Notes: generated by a model not told the origin, from the letters alone. 64,000 nt of DNA from Pseudomonadota bacterium (GCA_040386195.1 JAZKFV010000012.1:64342-128341); one strand, 5' to 3'. Positions 2,446-44,181 are shown, numbered from the stretch's first letter. Numbers and translations: made by a program.

Positions 2446-5050
2446 TATTGTTAAGTTGTTCTAATTGATGTTTATTTTTTTGCGATCCATCTCGAGGAGA
2501 AATTGATTTAGATGGTAATAAATCCAATCCAACTTTTCCACCAATAAAATCAAGTAAAGTTTGAGCAGTCTTTAAGCGGTCAGGATTTTTACTTCCAAGA
2601 CCTTGTTGATCGGCGCGACATCTATCGATAAATGAATGTTCAATTACGGTTTGGTGATAAGGATTAGTGCCTAAATGACATCCTTCCAAATGATTTTGAG
2701 CTAAAATTGCTGCTAATTCTCCATCAATTTTATAGGCATAAACCTTAGGAATTTCTGGGTTGGTTGCCGAAGTTGCAATCACTTCAATGCCAGCTGGCAG
2801 ACCTTGAAAACGTTGGTCGATTGGCAATTTTGGATCAGGGCATTGAACTTGCAAGCCTTGATAATGAGCGCTGAATGTTTCGATATTTTGAGTTGGATAA
2901 ATTTGGCTGTGATCATAACAAGCTGGATCTAACTGACTTCCTGCCAATATATCCATTGTATCATTTTTACCTCGCAAATCTTGAGGAGTTTTTAACGCAA
3001 CCATTTTGCCACCCAGCGCTGTTAATGCCACTTGAGTGCCGCCGCATATTGCCCAAATTGGTTTGCCAAGCTCTATAGCAGTTGCAAAGGCAATCATTTC
3101 CACAAAAGCTCTTCTTTGTCCGAGATTTTGCAAATCAATATTTTGATTATCAGTGCACCATTTAGGATCAATATTGCCGTAATTACCTAAAATCACCACG
3201 CCATTACTGTTGATAATTGATTCTCTAATTTGTGCCGCCAATTCTTTTATGGCACTCGTATCTGAAAATAATTGATTATCACCAATGTTATAATCAGGAA
3301 CTTTGACTGAAGCGCCAAAACCTTCTAAAGCTTGCGCTGGGCTTCTCAACCACACAGCATCGGCATAAGGAGTAAAAATTTTTAGCTTTTCACGATAATG
3401 ATGTTTGATTAATTGGTGAGGTAAAAGTCGATCTTTTTGCGCTTCAGATGGATAATCTTGCTGGGTTAAAATATAGCTGGATTGCTTTGATTCGGATAAT
3501 TCTTGATATTCGGCAATCAGCTTTTTTTCATTCTCATCATCAGGATTCAGGTGGCTTTTTTTCAACAAAGAATAAAAAGAATTTAATCCAGCTTTTTCCA
3601 TTTCTAAAGCGAGATGAATTGCGGTTGTGCCGGCATTATTTTTAGAATCAGGGTTTAAGCCTTCTTCTAATAACAGCTCAATTGCCAATTGTGGTTTATC
3701 ACGCTTTAAAGCTAGATGTAAAAGAGTGTCGCCATTTTGATTTTCCCCTAACAACAAATTGCCGCGTTGATTTTGTTTTAGAAATTCTATCAACAAATCC
3801 AATGTCATATCGTCAACCGCCGATATGGCTAATTCGATAAAATCAAAATTTATAATATCAATATTCTTTGCAAAAAAATTATTAATCTCTTCTTCACCAC
3901 AAGCAGAAAGATCTTTGAGCTGTTCAGATAAAGTTAGAGCATCGCTTTGAGATGGAGTTTGATCCGGAATTTTTAAAACAAATTTTCTGACATAATCACT
4001 CATTTTACCGCTGTGCAAATATTCATCACATTGAGCAATTCTTAATTGTGATATTAAAATATTAGCAATTTTTAAATCAGCTTGTTTATCAGGATCGGTC
4101 TTGTCTTTGACTAAATTTTTGGCAATTGCATCAATTGCTTCGATAGAAATATTTTCTGCTAGAGAATATTTTTGCTGAAAGGAATTTATTGCTTGATCAA
4201 GATCAGTAATTTTGCTTTTTTCTAAAGCGGCAACAAGTTTATCTTTTTGGGCTTGAACCGCGCTTCTTCTTTTTTCATCTTCTGCTAAATGATGAGAAAT
4301 ATCTTTAATCGCTCCTGAAGTAATTTTGGTTAATTCTTCAACTAATAATTTTGTAGTTTTATCTTCTAATTCTTGAGTAGCAGCTTCCGGAGTTTGAAGC
4401 ACAAATTGCGTTAAAGATACTTGTGCAGATTGATTGGTGTTTTTGCTTTTATTGGGATCATTTCTGCCAACTGGAATTTGAATTTGTTGCAAAAAGCCAC
4501 TAGCTTCCTCACCCAAAACTTCGCCAATATTTTTAAGACCATTGTGATGTGATTTAAGAAGTTCGGCAGGGCTTGATTGTTTAACGGTAATTGGAGTTTT
4601 TAGTGCAGCAACTTCATCGCCAATAACAAAAACATTTCTAAGTTTGATTGACTCACCAGCTTTGGCGCGATCTTGTAAAAATTGATTGAAGCCAATGCCA
4701 GCATGGTTAATATCACCAAATCCATAGCTGGGGTTTTTGATAGGATTGTTTTGATCATCAACTAAAACTTTTCCATCGGCATCAAATTTATATTCCAAAT
4801 CATTAGGATCTAAAGCTAAAGGTTTGAGTAAAATATATTTAACGCCATCTATTTTTCCTTCAGCAAAAGCATAATTTTGAAAGCTTGTATTTTCTCTTCT
4901 TTGCCACTCACCAAAAACTCGATTACCATTTTGATCTTTGGTTTCTTCCCATAATTTTTCAACTGCACGAAACCCAACATTATGACGACTTGCTTTTAGA
5001 GCTGCTCTTTCGTTTCCTAATCCAACTATTACTTTGATGTTATTGACCAT
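2417..5050 (-). CDS. Multidomain protein with an N-terminal peptidyl-tRNA hydrolase-like domain, central helical region with ankyrin repeats, and a C-terminal class-I glutamine amidotransferase / peptidase C26-like domain
   Basis: 877-aa ORF. The N-terminus KVIVGLGNERAALKASRHNVGF, then VFVIGDEVAAL and HHNGLKNI, aligns by eye with Pth motifs (LIVGLGNP..TRHN.G, HDELDL, GHNGLK). The middle has GDTLLHLALKRDKPQLAIELLLEEGLNPDSKNNAGTTAIHLAL (ANK). The C-terminus has GKPIWAICGGTQVALTALGG, FSAHYQGL and AQNHLEG, resembling GICRGMQ, NSFHHQ and QWHPE. It overlaps the murA start by 29 nt. Confidence 0.7.
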   Translation of the reverse strand: MVNNIKVIVGLGNERAALKASRHNVGFRAVEKLWEETKDQNGNRVFGEWQRRENTSFQNYAFAEGKIDGVKYILLKPLALDPNDLEYKFDADGKVLVDDQNNPIKNPSYGFGDINHAGIGFNQFLQDRAKAGESIKLRNVFVIGDEVAALKTPITVKQSSPAELLKSHHNGLKNIGEVLGEEASGFLQQIQIPVGRNDPNKSKNTNQSAQVSLTQFVLQTPEAATQELEDKTTKLLVEELTKITSGAIKDISHHLAEDEKRRSAVQAQKDKLVAALEKSKITDLDQAINSFQQKYSLAENISIEAIDAIAKNLVKDKTDPDKQADLKIANILISQLRIAQCDEYLHSGKMSDYVRKFVLKIPDQTPSQSDALTLSEQLKDLSACGEEEINNFFAKNIDIINFDFIELAISAVDDMTLDLLIEFLKQNQRGNLLLGENQNGDTLLHLALKRDKPQLAIELLLEEGLNPDSKNNAGTTAIHLALEMEKAGLNSFYSLLKKSHLNPDDENEKKLIAEYQELSESKQSSYILTQQDYPSEAQKDRLLPHQLIKHHYREKLKIFTPYADAVWLRSPAQALEGFGASVKVPDYNIGDNQLFSDTSAIKELAAQIRESIINSNGVVILGNYGNIDPKWCTDNQNIDLQNLGQRRAFVEMIAFATAIELGKPIWAICGGTQVALTALGGKMVALKTPQDLRGKNDTMDILAGSQLDPACYDHSQIYPTQNIETFSAHYQGLQVQCPDPKLPIDQRFQGLPAGIEVIATSATNPEIPKVYAYKIDGELAAILAQNHLEGCHLGTNPYHQTVIEHSFIDRCRADQQGLGSKNPDRLKTAQTLLDFIGGKVGLDLLPSKSISPRDGSQKNKHQLEQLNNNEKTDSPRR

Positions 5051-37206: not shown

Positions 37207-37258
37207 GGCAATTCGGATAGTTACCACATATCTGAATTGCCGTTTTTATTTATTTTTT
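37207..37258 (+). terminator. Rho-independent terminator (plus strand)
   Basis: GGCAATTCGGATA (37207-19) pairs with TATCTGAATTGCC (37229-41) in a 13-bp stem including one G-U. It is followed by GTTTTTATTTATTTTTT. The element overlaps the 3' end of the convergent exonuclease gene. Confidence 0.6.
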
Positions 37259-38106
37259 GAATTTGATTTTAACCAACCATCTAAAAACTCTTGCAAATGC
37301 GGGCGCTCCTCGCCTTCGCTGGCAAGATAATTTGCTAAATCTTCTTGTGCTTGCATAAAATTTTCGGTGCTTAAAGTGCCGATATGGTGCTGATAATGTA
37401 GATAAAGCAAATAGGTGTTGGCAACATCGGTTTCGCAATAATCGCGAATTTCTTTTAATTTGCCGGCATCGTAATAATCGCAAACCATTGAGCCATCGAT
37501 CCCAAGTTTTCCGGGTAAACCAAAAACGGCGCAAAGTTCATTCATTTTTACTCGCGCCGAAGCGCCAAAATCTGAGAAGGCATCAACTAAATCACAATGC
37601 CAATCTAGAGAATATTTTTGATTATAATTATTCCATTTATCACCCATTTTATAAAGCCAAGCGGCGGTGATTCCATATTTGATGGCGCGATATTTTAGAA
37701 CCGGCAAATCAAAATTTTTGCCGTTAAAACTAACAATTCTGGGTGGTTGTTTTTTCATATAAGAAAAAAATCCTTTCACTAATTCTTCTTCATTTGAATC
37801 AATATTTCCGCCACTTCTAATTTCATTTAAAACATATCTTTCCGTTCCATCGCCATCACGAATTATATCGGCTTGCAAAAAGCTAATCGCCACCACTTTT
37901 TGAAAAGGTTGGCGCAAAAAACTATTTTTGCCATCAGTGATTTTTAAATGATAATCAATCAAAGCTTGGCGACACTGGGCCTTGTTTTTGCCTTCTAAAT
38001 CAAGCAAATTTTTTGCGGCGTCAATATCGGGAATGGTTTCAATATCAAAAACAAATAAAGAATTGTGTTGCATAAATTCTGTGATCTTTAAAAATTGAAA
38101 ATTCAA
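37246..38106 (-). CDS. Predicted 3'-5' exonuclease related to the exonuclease domain of family-B DNA polymerases
   Basis: 286-aa ORF with the ExoI-like FVFDIETIPD, then VSFNGKNFDLPVL and CETDVANTYLLY. I recall this as the COG3298-type family. Confidence 0.7.
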   Translation of the reverse strand: MNFQFLKITEFMQHNSLFVFDIETIPDIDAAKNLLDLEGKNKAQCRQALIDYHLKITDGKNSFLRQPFQKVVAISFLQADIIRDGDGTERYVLNEIRSGGNIDSNEEELVKGFFSYMKKQPPRIVSFNGKNFDLPVLKYRAIKYGITAAWLYKMGDKWNNYNQKYSLDWHCDLVDAFSDFGASARVKMNELCAVFGLPGKLGIDGSMVCDYYDAGKLKEIRDYCETDVANTYLLYLHYQHHIGTLSTENFMQAQEDLANYLASEGEERPHLQEFLDGWLKSNSKNK

Positions 38107-38138: not shown

Positions 38139-39107
38139 ATGAAAGCATTTTTAATCAGCAAACCTGGATCACACAATAATTTAGAATTAAAAACTATCGA
38201 AGATCCAAAACCCCAGAGAGATCAAGTTGTAATTAGGCATACCGCGATTGGCATTAATCATTTTGATATTTGCTTTAGAAATGGCGCTTATAAATTAAGC
38301 CAAACCCCTGCCATTCTTGGGCTTGAAGCTTGCGGAATTATTGAGGAAGTAGGCAAAGATGTAACTGATTATAAAGTTGGTGAGCGCGTTGCTTATGCCA
38401 CCGGAGCAATTGGCGCCTACTCAGAGAGAAGGGCAGTGAAACAAAATTATTTAGTTGTGCCTCCACAAGGTTTAACCGACGAACAAGTTGCCGGATCACT
38501 TTTAAAAGGAATGATGGCGCATACTTTATTATTCAGAGTTTATTTGGCTGGGCGGGTGAAAAGAATTTTAATTCATTCGGCAGCTGGCGGAGTTGGGCAT
38601 TTTTTGTGTCAGTGGGCAAAACATTTAGGAATTGAAGTAATCGGAACAGTTGGCAGCGATGCTAAAATAGCAATTGCTAAATCTTTTGGCTGTGATCATG
38701 TCATTAATTATAGCAGCAAAGATTTTTTAGTTGAGTTAGATGCGATCACCAAAGGCGAGGGCGTTGGCATTGTTTATGATGGCGTTGGCAAAGATACAAT
38801 TTTAAAATCAATTGATTGTTTGTGGCCAATGGGAATGTGTGTTAGCTACGGCGAAGCCAGTGGCGCCACTCCGCCAATTGATTTAAATGCTTTATTGCTA
38901 AATTCTCTTTACATCACCCGCCCAACTTTGGCGCTTTATAAAGCTAAAAGAATTGAATTGGTTTTATCCGCCAATGAAGTGTTCAACGCAGTTGAGCGTG
39001 GAATTTTAAAACCCAATATTACGACTTATCAATTTAACGATATTCCAAAAGCGCATTTGGATTTAGAAAGTAGAAAAACCACCGGAGCTTTGGTTATCAA
39101 GGTTTAG
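38139..39107 (+). CDS. qor: NADPH:quinone oxidoreductase (zeta-crystallin / MDR family)
   Basis: 322-aa ORF with the nucleotide-binding motif HSAAGGVGHFLCQWAK and an MDR N-terminal GroES-like region. Confidence 0.8.
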   Translation: MKAFLISKPGSHNNLELKTIEDPKPQRDQVVIRHTAIGINHFDICFRNGAYKLSQTPAILGLEACGIIEEVGKDVTDYKVGERVAYATGAIGAYSERRAVKQNYLVVPPQGLTDEQVAGSLLKGMMAHTLLFRVYLAGRVKRILIHSAAGGVGHFLCQWAKHLGIEVIGTVGSDAKIAIAKSFGCDHVINYSSKDFLVELDAITKGEGVGIVYDGVGKDTILKSIDCLWPMGMCVSYGEASGATPPIDLNALLLNSLYITRPTLALYKAKRIELVLSANEVFNAVERGILKPNITTYQFNDIPKAHLDLESRKTTGALVIKV

Positions 39108-40096
39108 TAATGTTGCCAACCATATTGTAAAATCTTCACCTCTCCACCATTTTTATCTAAAAGACAAACTTTTGGTTTATCTTGAGGTTTTTGTAAATAA
39201 CCAACGCAAGTAAGTTTCACGCCAATTTTTTTAGCTAAATTCACAATCTTTTGCCGATCTTTTTTGTTCACACAAAAAATCAATTCATAATCATCGCCGC
39301 CAGATAAAAGCTGATTCAAGCTAATATTTTTACCAAGACAAGATCGTGCTGCCGCTGATAATGGAATTGCGCTTTGATTGATAATTGCATCAAGATTTGC
39401 AGCTTGGCAAATATGTTTTAAATCCGCCAAAAATCCGTCGGAAATATCAATTGCTGATTGGCAATTTTGTTTGATAAGTTCGATTCCAAGCCTGATTCTT
39501 GGGCTTGGTTGCAAGTGACGATTAGTTAAATATTTATAATGAGTTTTATTTGGGCAGATAATTTTTTCTTGCAATAATTGCAGACCCAAAAACGCATCAC
39601 CAATATTTCCAGAAACAAAAACCAAATCTCCAGCTTTTGCTTTACTGCGTTTCAAAGATTTTCCTTTAGCAACTTCGCCAAAAATTGTTAGGCTAAAACA
39701 TAATTTGTTTTCAGTTCTAATGCTGTCGCCACCAATTAAAACAATACCAAATTCATCGCTGACATCTTTTAAAGCGCGGCAAAATTCTTTAACAAAATTT
39801 TCATCCAAATCAATATTTTGCGAAAAACCCAGCAGATAATATAATGGCTTGGCGCCAGATGCGGCAAGGTCGGAAAGGTTGGTTTTAAGAAGTTTGCTGG
39901 CAATGTTATAAGCGCCGTCAGATTTTTTAAAATGAATATCTTCCGCCATCAAATCTTTACTAATCACTAATTCTTTTTTGGGAGAAAGAGAAATTAGCGC
40001 AACATCATCTTGCAGGGCATTTGATGCTTTGCAGCCTTTGGTTAGAGGTAAAAAATATTTTTTTATAATATCGAATTCACAGTTCATAGCTAGCAA
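39104..40096 (-). CDS. thiL: Thiamine-monophosphate kinase
   Basis: 330-aa ORF with EFDIIKKYF, DDVALI, EDIHF, and the AIR-synthase-like fold motif GGDDYELIF. An alternative ATG lies at 40087. Confidence 0.85.
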   Translation of the reverse strand: MLAMNCEFDIIKKYFLPLTKGCKASNALQDDVALISLSPKKELVISKDLMAEDIHFKKSDGAYNIASKLLKTNLSDLAASGAKPLYYLLGFSQNIDLDENFVKEFCRALKDVSDEFGIVLIGGDSIRTENKLCFSLTIFGEVAKGKSLKRSKAKAGDLVFVSGNIGDAFLGLQLLQEKIICPNKTHYKYLTNRHLQPSPRIRLGIELIKQNCQSAIDISDGFLADLKHICQAANLDAIINQSAIPLSAAARSCLGKNISLNQLLSGGDDYELIFCVNKKDRQKIVNLAKKIGVKLTCVGYLQKPQDKPKVCLLDKNGGEVKILQYGWQHY

Positions 40097-40820
40097 TCAC
40101 GCCGTTGGAAATATATTTATTCATCAAAGATCCAATATCAAAATTCGGATATTTTTTGTTTAAATTTTGATAAATTTGGTAAAGATTTTCGCCTTTTTTA
40201 ATTTGTTTTAAAAACAAAAACTCAGCCTGCGAAAGCTCTGATATATTGGTTTGCCACTTTGCTCTTTCAACTAAAATCCAATTTTTTTTCAAGTGAATTT
40301 TTGCATCAGAAGATTTCCAAATATTATAAATTGAATAATTGCAAGCCAATAAATAACAGGATGGATGCAGTTTAAATTTAACTTTAAACAAATCTTTTTC
40401 TTTTAATTTCTGAAATTTCTCCAAAGCAAAATCAGCAACATCTTGAGCAAAATAAGCAAAATGATATTGCCATTCAAGACGAGCTAAATCCTTTAAATAA
40501 AAGAGTTGGTGCTCGCTTTTTAAATCATTAATTAGCTTATAAAAATATTTTCCATATTCATCCAAATTACCACTTTGAGAAAAATATTGCCGATGAAACT
40601 TAGTGCATAAATAACCAAAATATTTATCACCAACCATTTTTTTTGTGGCTGGATAAAGCATTTCCAAAACCGAATCAAAATTGCCAAAAACATTATTGCG
40701 ATAAATTTGTACACGATCTTTAACGGCAACTTTATAATTTTTAATTTCGCCTAAAATTTTATTTTGTTGCGGATTGTAGATTTGATTGGCAAATTGTTTT
40801 TGTAATTCTTTGAGCTTCAT
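40077..40820 (-). CDS. DUF2063-family protein (MNIO partner, BufC/HvfC-like)
   Basis: 247-aa ORF. ATGA overlaps the upstream DUF692 gene by 4 nt. The N-terminus LQKQFANQIYNP..., the size, and the position immediately after DUF692 match the DUF692/DUF2063 pairing known from bufferin and HvfABC operons. Confidence 0.7.
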   Translation of the reverse strand: MKLKELQKQFANQIYNPQQNKILGEIKNYKVAVKDRVQIYRNNVFGNFDSVLEMLYPATKKMVGDKYFGYLCTKFHRQYFSQSGNLDEYGKYFYKLINDLKSEHQLFYLKDLARLEWQYHFAYFAQDVADFALEKFQKLKEKDLFKVKFKLHPSCYLLACNYSIYNIWKSSDAKIHLKKNWILVERAKWQTNISELSQAEFLFLKQIKKGENLYQIYQNLNKKYPNFDIGSLMNKYISNGVIASYEL

Positions 40821-41662
40821 AATTGGTGTTTGATAATTTTTTCAGCCTTCTTCGCCTCAGCCATCAAAACCGAAAATTCCGGAATATCTTGATCCCATTC
40901 AATTAGAGTTGGTGAGGTTTTAAACTTGCTAACGGCAATTTTATATAAATCCCAAACTGCATCACAAACAAAATTATCATGAGTATCGACCAACATTTTT
41001 TGTTTGCCAAATTTGCGCACCGAATGCCCAGCCAAATGCATTTCGCCAACAATTTTTGCATCAATATTTTGCAAATATTTTTTAGCATCAAAACCATTAT
41101 TTGTAGAGCTAACATAAATATTGTTAATATCTAACAAGATCTTGCAGCCGGTAATTTTAGCGGTTTGATTGATAAATTCATCCTCGGCAATTTGAGAATT
41201 TATAAAGCTTAAATAAGTTGAAGGATTTTCAACTAAAATTTCTCTTTTTAAAAAATCTTGAGTTTGAGAAATATTTCCGCAGAGAATTTTTAATGATTCT
41301 TTGGTATAGGGAATTGGTAGCAAATCATTTAAAACTCTATCTTCAACATTACTCCACGAAATATGATCGGACACCAAAAACGGCTCGGTAATGGCAATTA
41401 ATTTTTTTAGATTCTGTAAATGTTTTTTGTGAATTTTGGTTGCTGATCCCAGTGAAAGACCAACGCCGTGAAGACTTAAAGGATAATGTTGACGAACTTT
41501 TTTGATAAAATTTATGGCAGCGCCGCCAGATGAGAAAAAATTTTCACTATGAACTTCAAGCCAAGGAACTGGTGGTTTTTTTTCAAGAATGTATTGGTGA
41601 TGTATATGCCTTAAACCAACTCCAACAGCGTTTGCTGAAGTTGGCTTGTTAAGATTGAACAC
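40817..41662 (-). CDS. DUF692 / multinuclear non-heme iron oxidative (MNIO) enzyme, BufB/MbnB/HvfB-like
   Basis: 281-aa ORF with VGVGLRHIHHQYIL...PWLEVHSENFF, LSLHGVGLSLGS, VSDHISW, LVENPSTYL, and EMHLAGH, a typical DUF692 TIM-barrel metal-ligand pattern. Confidence 0.85.
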   Translation of the reverse strand: MFNLNKPTSANAVGVGLRHIHHQYILEKKPPVPWLEVHSENFFSSGGAAINFIKKVRQHYPLSLHGVGLSLGSATKIHKKHLQNLKKLIAITEPFLVSDHISWSNVEDRVLNDLLPIPYTKESLKILCGNISQTQDFLKREILVENPSTYLSFINSQIAEDEFINQTAKITGCKILLDINNIYVSSTNNGFDAKKYLQNIDAKIVGEMHLAGHSVRKFGKQKMLVDTHDNFVCDAVWDLYKIAVSKFKTSPTLIEWDQDIPEFSVLMAEAKKAEKIIKHQL

Positions 41663-41668
41663 TTGAAA

Positions 41669-41911
41669 CTATTTTGTTTCAGTTGCTTTTTTGTCAGCCG
41701 GAGTAGCTTTTGCTTTTTTGTTAGCAGCTTTTTTAGAATTACATTTGTGAGCTTCTGCTTTAGTAGCCGAAGTTTGATTAGCTTCTTTTTTAGCTTTGCA
41801 AGTATTAGAAGAACATTTGTGAGCAGTTTCTTTGTTGAACATAGAGCAGCTGGCAACAAGAGTTAAGCCAACAACACCAGTAGCAACGGATTTTAAAAAA
41901 GTTTTTTTCAT
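41669..41911 (-). CDS. Small Lys/Ala-rich lipoprotein with repeated AHKC motifs (candidate RiPP precursor)
   Basis: 80-aa ORF with a signal peptide and lipobox (GLTLVAS/C). Two copies of the motif are present: ETAHKCSSNTCKAKKEANQ and AEAHKCNSKKAANKK. Its stop lies 6 nt upstream of the DUF692 start. Confidence 0.6.
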   Translation of the reverse strand: MKKTFLKSVATGVVGLTLVASCSMFNKETAHKCSSNTCKAKKEANQTSATKAEAHKCNSKKAANKKAKATPADKKATETK

Positions 41912-41953
41912 AATATAAAAAATTAAAGTTAATAAAGTTAAAAAGTGGTAAGT

Positions 41954-42208
41954 TTAAGACAAGCTGCCATTAACAATTCTTTCGCAAGTGCCTTTTGGAA
42001 GAAGAACCCATTCGTCTTTAGCGCCGTCAATTTTGGCGGATCCAGCGCAAGAGTGAGTGCCTTTTTTTGTAGCACAATCATTTTTTCCGGCTTTAACAAC
42101 GCCATAACATTTTTCCATTTTAGCGTTATCGGCTAAAGCTGGAGTGGATGCAATTGCAATTGAAGTGACGCCAAGAATAACTGAGGAAATAAAAGTTTTT
42201 TTGTTCAT
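41954..42208 (-). CDS. DUF2282-family secreted Cys-containing peptide (bufferin BufA1-like RiPP precursor)
   Basis: This uses the inner ATG at 42206-42208 of track ORF 41954-42256. The sequence is [26 protein letters not shown] (Sec signal), then [48 protein letters not shown]. That is the DUF2282 pattern, with 4 Cys. Confidence 0.8.
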
Positions 42209-42311
42209 GTCTTTGTAGGAAAAATTTAATGAAATAAGAAAAAATAACTGCAGCAAAAACTAATTATTTTTTTGTATTTGTCAAAAACAATTTGGCAGCA
42301 AAATTGATTTT

Positions 42312-43097
42312 TTAATAATGCTTTAAAATTCTGCTTCCAAAGCCAATTTTTTGACTATTTTTTATTGTTTTATAAACAAACAAATTGGCTTTTTTAACTG
42401 CACTTTCCAAGTTTAAATTTTGACTCACAAAACAAGTAATTGCAGTGGCTAATGTGCAGCCGGTTCCGTGAACATTTTTGAAAGGTAATTTTTTATTACT
42501 GAAGAATTTTTCTGCGCCATTTTCTTGGAGTAAATAGTTAAAAATTTTATCGCCGCAGTTTAAATGCCCGCCTTTGATTAAAACATTTTTAACCCCAATT
42601 TTTTTAATTTTTTTTGCGGCAATTTTTACATCATCTAAATTTTTTATTTTCATCTCCGCCAAAATTTCTGCCTCAAAAATATTGGGTGTAACTAAATATG
42701 AATTGGCAATTAATTGTTCTTTCAAAACCTTGATAGCATTGGTTTTCAAGAGCAAATCGCCGCTGGTGGCAACCATTACCGGATCGGTTATGATTGGAAT
42801 TTTTTTAGCTTTTTGTTTTAAAATTTCTGCAACCGTTTCAGTGATTTGGGCATTGCCAAGCATACCAATTTTGATCGCATCAATTTTTATATCATCCAAA
42901 ACAACTTCAATTTGTTTGCTTAAAAAATCAACCGGCGGATAGAAAATGTCATAAACTTTTTGGCTATTTTGAGCGGTAAGACAAGTGATTGCAGAAGCGC
43001 AGTAAGTTTGAAGCGCAGTGGCAGTTTTAATGTCAGCTTGCACGCCAGCGCCACCGCAAGAATCTGAGCCGGCAATGATGAGTATTTTGTGTTTCAC
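42312..43097 (-). CDS. thiD: Hydroxymethylpyrimidine / phosphomethylpyrimidine kinase
   Basis: 261-aa ORF with ILIIAGSDSCGGAGVQADIKT, KIGMLG, and VHGTGCTLATAI. Confidence 0.9.
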   Translation of the reverse strand: MKHKILIIAGSDSCGGAGVQADIKTATALQTYCASAITCLTAQNSQKVYDIFYPPVDFLSKQIEVVLDDIKIDAIKIGMLGNAQITETVAEILKQKAKKIPIITDPVMVATSGDLLLKTNAIKVLKEQLIANSYLVTPNIFEAEILAEMKIKNLDDVKIAAKKIKKIGVKNVLIKGGHLNCGDKIFNYLLQENGAEKFFSNKKLPFKNVHGTGCTLATAITCFVSQNLNLESAVKKANLFVYKTIKNSQKIGFGSRILKHY

Positions 43098-43664: not shown

Positions 43665-43925
43665 TTATTTATAAATTTTGCTACGATGATTAATTTCAAT
43701 AACTAAAACCACTAATTCTTTTTCTTGTAAATCACAAATAATTCTATAATCGCCAACTCGATAACGCCATAAACCTTTTAAATTAGAGGTTAGAGCTTTG
43801 CCAAATAATTTAGGTGATTTTTTTAAATTTTCCTTATTAAGAAAATTTAATATTTTACTTTGTGTCTGATTATCAAGTTTGCTGATAATTTTTTTTGATT
43901 TTTCACTAAGGCTTATTTCCCACAT
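43665..43925 (-). CDS. Type II toxin, RelE/ParE superfamily
   Basis: 86-aa [36 protein letters not shown] is the classic RelE/StbE C-terminal signature. Confidence 0.8.
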
Positions 43926-43947
43926 TTGGTGATTGTGTTAATTGTTA

Positions 43948-44181
43948 CTATTCAAGTCTAATTCCAAGCTCTTTGGCGATTTCTTCAAGACTATAAGTTT
44001 TGCTGCCACTTTTTTTATGTTCTTTTAAAGCTTTAATGCCAGAGCGGTAATCTTGCCAATCTTCAAGCTTTTCTTGTAAAGCTTTTTTGATCAACCAAGA
44101 TTTGGTGCGATCTTCTTCTTCGCAAAATTTTTCTAGCACTTTTTCAAGATCTGCGGGGATTCTAAAAGTTAAAACTGACAT
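43948..44181 (-). CDS. Type II antitoxin, ribbon-helix-helix (CopG/RelB-like)
   Basis: 77-aa ORF, 22 nt upstream of the toxin gene. The N-terminal RHH is LTFRIPADLEKVLEKFCEEEDRTKSWLIKKAL. Confidence 0.75.
   Translation of the reverse strand: MSVLTFRIPADLEKVLEKFCEEEDRTKSWLIKKALQEKLEDWQDYRSGIKALKEHKKSGSKTYSLEEIAKELGIRLE

Follow-up and report, generated by a model that had tools for sequence, protein, structure and literature searches.

A Rickettsiales-restricted family of small lipoproteins encoded next to BufB-type MNIO maturases: candidate lipid-anchored metallophore precursors

Gene content of the locus

The window analysed here (a stretch of 64,000 nucleotides from a Pseudomonadota bacterium, GCA_040386195.1 JAZKFV010000012.1:64342-128341) carries on its minus strand an operon in which genes for a DUF2282/BufA1 protein, a small lipoprotein, an MNIO, a DUF2063 protein and a ThiL-like protein follow each other in this order. 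The bufA1 gene (41954..42208, minus strand) encodes a precursor of the bufferin-1 type (Pfam PF10048, E = 3e-27); its start is likely the ATG of MNKK, the ORF finder having listed a TTG at 42256. The product of bufB (40817..41662, minus strand) is an MNIO (DUF692) maturase, an iron enzyme, recognised by the Pfam profile MbnB_TglH_ChrH (E = 2e-100, 335.9 bits) and matching PDB entry 3BWW (E = 9e-40). It passes the cut-off of the NCBIfam MNIO_BufB model (370.6 bits for a cut-off of 310) and stays under that of the HvfB model (224 bits for a cut-off of 360). MNIOs of this clade present the sequence G-V-G-L-R-[H/S] instead of the Arg-Arg pair found among the FonB specificity residues (Arg15, Arg16, Asp249 and Phe250). 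The next gene, bufC (40077..40820, minus strand), encodes the DUF2063/PME1 partner (Pfam DUF2063, E = 2e-17; 59 bits, under the cut-off, with the NCBIfam HvfC-family model) and overlaps at its end by 20 nt with the thiL-like gene (39104..40096, minus strand), whose product has AIRS and AIRS_C domains (Pfam). MNIO-PME1 pairs of the BufB/BufC type convert cysteines to 5-thiooxazoles in the cytoplasm, acting on precursors with Sec signal peptides.

The MNIO cluster sits among thiamine genes, with thiD upstream (42312-43097) and the thiL-like gene downstream. The window also contains a type II toxin-antitoxin pair between purE and murD (43665-44181, minus strand), composed of a ParE-family toxin (43665-43925, Pfam E = 4e-10) and an RHH/DUF6290 antitoxin (43948-44181, E = 1e-13), and a stand-alone predicted 3'-5' exonuclease of the PolB-exonuclease type (37246-38106, minus strand; DNA_pol_B_exo2, E = 6e-71), which is found beside the same gene neighbourhood in one related locus (L004).

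The small lipoprotein gene, a candidate gene for a lipid-anchored MNIO precursor, is an ORF with an ATG start (41669..41911, minus strand) encoding 80 amino acids (MKKTFLKSVATGVVGLTLVASCSMFNKETAHKCSSNTCKAKKEANQTSATKAEAHKCNSKKAANKKAKATPADKKATETK). Its stop codon (41669-41671) is separated by 6 nt from the GTG start of the MNIO gene at 41662, and the ORF coordinates and profile searches thus confirm the placement in the usual position of a precursor, directly before the DUF692 gene, on which the original prediction was built. bufA1 and the lipoprotein gene are 42 nt apart, and their spacer includes a short 9-nt tandem repeat (TAAAGTTAA, 2.7 copies, 41924-41946). The Sec/lipobox leader proposed at the outset was borne out by pattern matching, the sole means by which signal peptides and lipoboxes were assigned here and in all family members: codons 1-22 (41846..41911, minus strand) encode MKKTFLKSVATGVVGLTLVAS followed by C, that is, a Lys-rich n-region, a hydrophobic h-region and the lipobox V19-A20-S21-C22, in which Cys22 is the predicted lipidation site.

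Beyond Cys22, the peptide has three cysteines (33, 38 and 57), distributed over the two short motif copies that the original prediction had described and that are present as stated. Motif 1 (ETAHKCSSNTCKAKK, E28-K42; 41786..41830, minus strand) contains Cys33 and Cys38 as a C-x4-C pair (C33-SSNT-C38), and motif 2 (AEAHKCNSKKAANKK, A52-K66; 41714..41758, minus strand), which repeats an [N/H]-K-C-[small] unit, contains Cys57. Two E-x-A-H-K-C units can be read in the peptide. Of these three cysteines, only C33 has the strict form of the family motif, [N/H]-x-C-[small], C38 being followed by Lys and C57 by Asn.

Pfam searches with the lipoprotein returned no family at E<=1 and NCBIfam searches only sub-threshold noise; the same searches gave no match to LptM-type models or to models of other non-RiPP lipoproteins of bufferin clusters. 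A promoter and terminator scan found sites no more numerous than in shuffled controls, and we detected neither a DNA tandem repeat within the lipoprotein gene nor Rfam elements near it. AlphaFold2, run with the family alignment, predicts a single helix at residues 3-29, corresponding to the signal peptide, and a disordered mature part (pLDDT about 50). In summary of its architecture, the lipoprotein combines features by which MNIO-PME1 precursors are recognised, namely position, Sec signal peptide and conserved Cys motif, with one that characterises DAG-RiPPs, a lipobox with an invariant Cys at the cleavage site (VAS/C22).

A lipoprotein family with a constrained cysteine motif

A word-index search retrieved 11 close homologues, whose signal peptides hardly vary. 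When 1.84 billion representatives were then searched exhaustively with a profile, 39 matches emerged, and a second profile search with a widened alignment gave 121 clusters. Pooled, these searches define a family of about 150 members, 53-123 amino acids long, of which about 140 lie beyond the 11 close ones. Genome and metagenome pattern scans gave only three loci and exact-protein matches far more. All named members are annotated as 'MAG: Rickettsiales bacterium'.

The ORF is a genuine and conserved gene under purifying selection: Nei-Gojobori dN/dS ratios range from 0.08 to 0.41 with pS up to 0.62 (first 38 codons, 21 pairwise comparisons), length differences among relatives are multiples of three only, and lipobox and Cys motifs are kept. 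A non-conserved ORF, one of the outcomes that would have spoken against the original prediction, is thus not what relatives show. The gene is short and of low complexity and overlapping ORFs exist on both strands, features that could be expected if the reading frame had arisen by chance in AT-rich intergenic DNA; given the selection pattern, the in-frame indels and the about 150 homologues with intact lipobox, this explanation is vanishingly improbable, and we rule out a spurious ORF.

None of the 145-150 family members lacks the lipobox, which most commonly reads VASC, IASC or AASC. C22 is invariant in both the close (A1) and the wide (A2) alignment, and Ser directly follows the lipid Cys in 121 of 145 members. 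Family-wide, the mature part is composed of 27% Lys, 14% Ala and 12% Ser, with aromatic residues almost absent. A conserved E-x-K-x-N tail, typically KTEEKKN, closes the protein in 46 of 150 members (e.g., P0114, P0143, P0078, P0131 and the product of L008 5001-5246); in the subclade of the window, the C-terminus reads TETK or TTDKK (window 41669-41690). This tail, which is separate from the Cys motifs, could be a signal for sorting or surface exposure or for binding a partner.

Every member possesses two to seven cysteines in addition to that of the lipobox. Among the 551 non-lipobox cysteines of the family, position -2 is occupied by Asn or His in 91% of cases (Asn 62%, His 29%; background 9%), position -1 by Lys in 47%, and position +1 by Ser, Ala or Gly in 81% and by Lys in only 10%, while Ser, Ala or Lys are found at position -3. 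The -2 and +1 preferences are combined in 77% of these cysteines, which conform to [N/H]-x-C-[S/A/G], for an expectation of 2.9%. The spacing between cysteines is x5 in 103 cases, x4 in 66 and close to x9 in many others, which corresponds to paired cysteines (C-x4/5-C) and to a repeat unit, KKE-x-[N/H]-K-C-S-A, about 10 residues in length.

In the close subclade, H31, C33 and S34 never vary and C38 hardly does; across the wide alignment, conservation of C33 is at least 90%. The number of further [N/H]-K-C-[small] copies varies among relatives from zero to three: P0003 has four AHKC copies in total, and P0005 and P0009 have the first motif only, without the Cys of the second. Conservation of the HKC motif, suggested as a check on the original prediction, therefore holds for the Cys of the first motif and fails for the second AHKC, which is absent even from these close relatives. 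The neighbouring His, which had been read as a sign of a metal-binding site, fares less well: Asn being commoner than His at position -2, an obligatory His metal ligand is doubtful. Judging from the alignments, HKC is this subclade's version of the broader [N/H]-K-C-[small] unit.

A related cysteine context is found in the bufferin encoded upstream. The BufA1 alignment (A3) has four conserved cysteines, of which the central two lie in K-N-D-C-A and H-S-C-A-G and are invariant; the outer, disulfide-forming ones (E-K-C-Y and G-T-C-E) do not fit [N/H]-x-C-[small]. Such matching contexts would explain in a simple manner how a single active site could act on both BufA1 and the lipoprotein.

The signal peptides of the two proteins are also unusually alike (window 42130-42208 for BufA1 and 41846-41911 for the lipoprotein, MKKTFLKSVATGV). 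We considered an origin of one gene by duplication of the other and did not adopt it: tblastn cross-hits are weak, an hhalign comparison aligns the signal peptide up to the first Cys only (95% probability, 33 columns), and likeness at the DNA level is limited to AAAAAAACTTTT. The likeness of the leaders themselves may reflect either common origin or convergence.

Gene order and probable gene losses in related loci

We examined 15 distinct loci (L005 is the same as L004). In 12 of them the lipoprotein gene is co-oriented with, and located 6-22 nt upstream of, a gene encoding a BufB-type MNIO, these MNIOs being 50-84% identical to each other; the linkage of homologues to DUF692 genes, on which the original prediction depended, is therefore the prevailing arrangement. 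The tandem BufA1-lipoprotein-MNIO-DUF2063 occurs in the window, in L003, L004, L006 and L007, on the contig of P0007 and in the distant L012. DoxX is found only in L012, and none of the loci has a Lactamase_B_2 gene. A thiL-like neighbour is also present in L004, L008-L010, L012, L013 and L014; this link is kept where the MNIOs are only about 50% identical, and also after deletion of the MNIO and DUF2063 genes (L013 and L014).

The lipoprotein and MNIO-DUF2063 genes are found without DUF2282 at the locus in L001, L002, L008, L009, L010 and on the contig of P0112. In L001 and L002, the lipoprotein gene is preceded by gltX and some 600 nt without coding sequence; the genes upstream are divergent in L008, L009, L010 and on the P0112 contig, where thiL-RDD is found downstream. 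The MNIOs of the loci without DUF2282 score 341-371 bits, above the BufB cut-off, and those of L001 and L008-L010 show the same HvfB/BufB pattern as the window enzyme. Since the lipoprotein is the sole peptide encoded before the MNIO in these six of the 12 linked loci, it is the constant partner of the MNIO and bufA1 is facultative. The lipoprotein is thus not the extra gene, added to a bufferin operon, for which it had been taken.

In a midpoint-rooted neighbour-joining tree of the MNIOs, L008, L009 and L010 are separated from a group in which L012 is sister to a clade made up of the L001-L002 pair and a second group with the window, L003, L004, L006 and L007. A recent gain of DUF2282 in the subclade of the window is ruled out by the tandem in the distant L012 and in L011, and bufA1 was probably lost in L001 and L002. 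In L001, the spacer between gltX and the lipoprotein gene (3330-3950) has overlapping ORFs on the two strands, whose translations are oddly repetitive (RLKVRNRELENREDEDVKLG), and may be a repeat or palindromic element at the place that bufA1 occupies in other lineages.

Three loci depart from the linked arrangement. In L011, the lipoprotein gene follows sigma-70/NrsF and BufA1 genes and is followed by rph in convergent orientation; no MNIO lies within 4 kb, so that the precursors are uncoupled from enzyme genes. The segment 2508-4231 of this locus comprises an ECF sigma factor split into two ORFs (region 2 and region 4), the NrsF anti-sigma factor, a 34-aa ORF, BufA1 and the lipoprotein. In the metagenomic loci L013 and L014, the lipoprotein genes (177-401 and 330-554, respectively) are directly followed by thiL-RDD-lpxC, which is the L008 arrangement minus MNIO and DUF2063. 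Their products, P0143 and P0145, have no motif-compliant Cys and possess instead a single CxxC, K-C-H-T-C-K or K-C-R-T-C-K. This change is consistent with relaxation of a constraint imposed by the enzyme, as seen in one lineage only. A terminator-like GC hairpin with a T-run follows the lipoprotein gene in L014.

Candidate function and relation to known systems

The lipoprotein is probably a lipid-anchored, disordered precursor of a thiooxazole metallophore of the bufferin/captophorin type. This reading is suggested by its location, in 12 of 15 loci, immediately before a BufB-type MNIO gene and by the lack of any other adjacent candidate in the six loci whose MNIOs pass the BufB cut-off. It is further suggested by the signal peptide and the at least two additional cysteines of all members, which are defining traits of MNIO-PME1 precursors, by a constrained Cys context equal to that of the central cysteines of BufA1, and by a variable repeat number combined with predicted disorder, as in short oxazolin-type precursors. 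Motif-compliant cysteines have disappeared where MNIO and DUF2063 are gone (L013 and L014), and a precedent exists in the lipidated NedA, which is modified by NedBC. Several observations count against it: L013 and L014 keep the lipoprotein gene without MNIO and DUF2063, L011 has it with no MNIO close by, only C33 is strictly motif-compliant in the window peptide, and P0005 and P0009 have kept the first motif alone.

In the proposed mechanism, cytoplasmic BufB (MNIO) and BufC (DUF2063) would turn the cysteines in [N/H]-x-C-[small] contexts (Cys33, Cys57 and possibly also Cys38) by oxidation into 5-thiooxazoles, after which the modified lipoprotein would be exported by Sec. Cys22 would then receive a diacylglyceryl group, followed by cleavage by signal peptidase II and N-acylation. 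The expected product would be a disordered, Lys-rich and lipid-anchored metallophore on the periplasmic face of a membrane, binding most likely copper, which we assume by analogy. In the window, the same BufB/BufC would also serve the folded, soluble DUF2282 bufferin, yielding both soluble and membrane-bound products.

Two rival explanations do without such a modification. The protein could be an unmodified periplasmic lipoprotein rich in Cys, His and Lys that works with the bufferin and is no MNIO substrate, for instance a membrane-anchored thiol metal sponge, a metal chaperone or receptor for BufA1, or a redox partner replacing DoxX. It would be in line with such roles that the gene persists without MNIO and DUF2063 in L013 and L014 and beside BufA1 without a nearby MNIO in L011, that DoxX is missing in all loci but L012, and that non-RiPP lipoproteins are known in bufferin clusters (Clusters V-IX; PMC13056109). 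Indeed, these three loci make either a modification-free function or an enzyme encoded elsewhere possible. We nevertheless regard an unmodified protein as unlikely, the gene occupying the precursor slot 6-22 nt before the MNIO, such that in six loci the MNIO-PME1 pair would be left with no adjacent substrate. Moreover, the strongly constrained [N/H]-x-C-[small] matches the modified cysteines of BufA1, and it gives way to CxxC precisely where the enzyme genes have gone.

Alternatively, the association with the MNIO could be inherited synteny only, the protein being a polycationic envelope lipoprotein (binding, e.g., the outer membrane or peptidoglycan) with no tie to the enzyme. The mature part is indeed of low complexity with 27% Lys, the often conserved EEKKN tail is unrelated to the cysteines, the lipoprotein-thiL neighbourhood outlives the deletion of the MNIO gene, and the whole family forms one clade whose loci are not phylogenetically independent. 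Synteny alone would however leave unexplained why every member keeps at least two additional cysteines in a non-random context (77% against 3% expected) and why members outside MNIO-bearing contexts are restricted to L011, L013 and L014, and the 6-22 nt between the genes imply that lipoprotein and MNIO are co-transcribed and may be coupled; we therefore hold it to be quite improbable.

A further and more tentative proposal concerns the window and the other tandem loci, for which we give it somewhat less than an even chance: one BufB/BufC pair may natively mature two structurally unrelated precursors of the same operon, recognising both the folded, soluble bufferin (DUF2282) and the disordered repeat peptide with its lipid anchor by the shared local [N/H]-x-C-[small] context and not by leader or fold. 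Metal buffering might then have two tiers, one soluble and one tethered to the membrane, with the lipopeptide and not the bufferin as the indispensable component in the Rickettsiales clade.

The presentation of this protein as a candidate for an undescribed substrate class was overstated, as lipidated MNIO substrates, Lys-Cys repeats and tandem precursors were reported in 2025-2026 (PMC12452194, PMC13056109, PMC13097082). The concept of a lipoprotein MNIO precursor is already known; what appears to be new is a Rickettsiales-restricted family of a described kind. As far as the literature examined shows, the family itself, its motif, its pairing with BufB, the heterotypic tandem of BufA1 and a lipopeptide, and the series of losses are apparently undescribed. 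Lipoprotein-type MNIO precursors have been predicted and tandem precursor genes noted (PMC12452194), and hundreds of unclassified small ORFs combining a signal peptide with cysteines precede MNIO genes (PMC12452194, PMC13056109).

The closest parallels are the lipidated oxazolins and captophorins, i.e., NedA of Neisseria dentiae and other DAG-RiPPs (PMC13056109) and HvfA/FonA (PMC13097082, PMC11252979). The lipobox-bearing precursors NedA and DybA are modified first and triacylated afterwards, NedBC removing 4 Da per EGKCG repeat of NedA (PMC13056109). Three captophorin groups are recognised, DUF2282, Lys-Cys repeat and Cys-Lys, and FonBC prefers a small residue after the Cys (PMC13097082). 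The family described here shares with this group the SPII-type signal with lipobox, short repeated motifs with Lys before and a small residue after the Cys, the variable repeat number and the gene position directly upstream of MNIO and DUF2063 (PME1); by analogy, the product would likewise be a membrane-anchored, copper-binding thiooxazole peptide. In contrast to this group (Buf_EGKCG), the window peptide has neither EGKCG nor the 17-residue repeat, the family motif being [S/A/K]-[N/H]-K-C-[S/A/G], and no homology is detectable with NCBIfam or Pfam models. The enzyme is a BufB and not an HvfB, DoxX is usually absent, DUF2282 is often paired with the lipoprotein, and the members come only from MAGs labelled Rickettsiales. 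Lys-Cys repeats have been counted in only 21 of 15,077 DUF2282 BGCs in a table whose meaning is not fully clear (PMC13097082, Table S2).

In bufferin 1 of Caulobacter vibrioides, the two central cysteines become copper-binding thiooxazoles, and modification does not require the signal peptide (PMC11626156); the order bufA-bufB-bufC is the rule for bufferin clusters (PMC12452194). The window has the same BufB equivalog and partner, Sec export and a BufA1 in the same operon, and the N-x-C-A and H-x-C-A contexts of the modified cysteines resemble the lipoprotein repeats. BufA1 is however a folded protein with four cysteines and an SPI signal, whereas the lipoprotein is predicted to be disordered, has an SPII signal and two to seven additional cysteines, and does not match PF10048. 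Some Buf2 precursors (BUF_6/12Cys) are also Cys-rich and of lipoprotein type, with lipoprotein signal peptides in 16% of them (PMC12452194). They are modified by BufB2/C2 and are folded, with 6 or 12 conserved cysteines and Cys-Lys dyads, unlike the window peptide with its three additional cysteines and predicted disorder and the Lys-Cys order of its family.

A last comparison concerns the CxxxxC family (PMC12452194) and Cluster X, which consists of uncharacterised lipoproteins with a conserved CxxxxC (PMC13056109). These too are signal peptide- or lipoprotein-type precursors upstream of MNIO-PME1, and the window peptide has a C33-x4-C38 pair. In the present family, however, x5 spacing (103 cases) is commoner than x4 (66 cases), and the BGCs lack Lactamase_B_2 and mostly DoxX, both of which are reported there. 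On these descriptions, the lipoprotein family may be either identical with CxxxxC/Cluster X or distinct from it. The motif strings of the family and three nr accessions had no match in those portions of the supplement texts of published surveys that were searched. With respect to taxonomy, only five BGCs from Rickettsiales were included in the captophorin survey, where the order was called depleted (PMC13097082). The sizeable unannotated family reported here, about 150 sequences, is an addition to this order. The known chemistry and logic of the MNIO system are left unchanged by it.

Few RiPP systems are as widespread as the MNIO-PME1 clusters, and a current question is what makes a Cys a substrate. 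The Rickettsiales loci would provide a dual-substrate case, in which a BufB-type enzyme is associated with a lipopeptide that is neither a DUF2282 protein nor of the EGKCG type, often with both precursors in tandem. Together with the natural knock-outs formed by the lineages without bufA1 and by those without the enzyme genes, they may thus constitute a natural test of the substrate rules.
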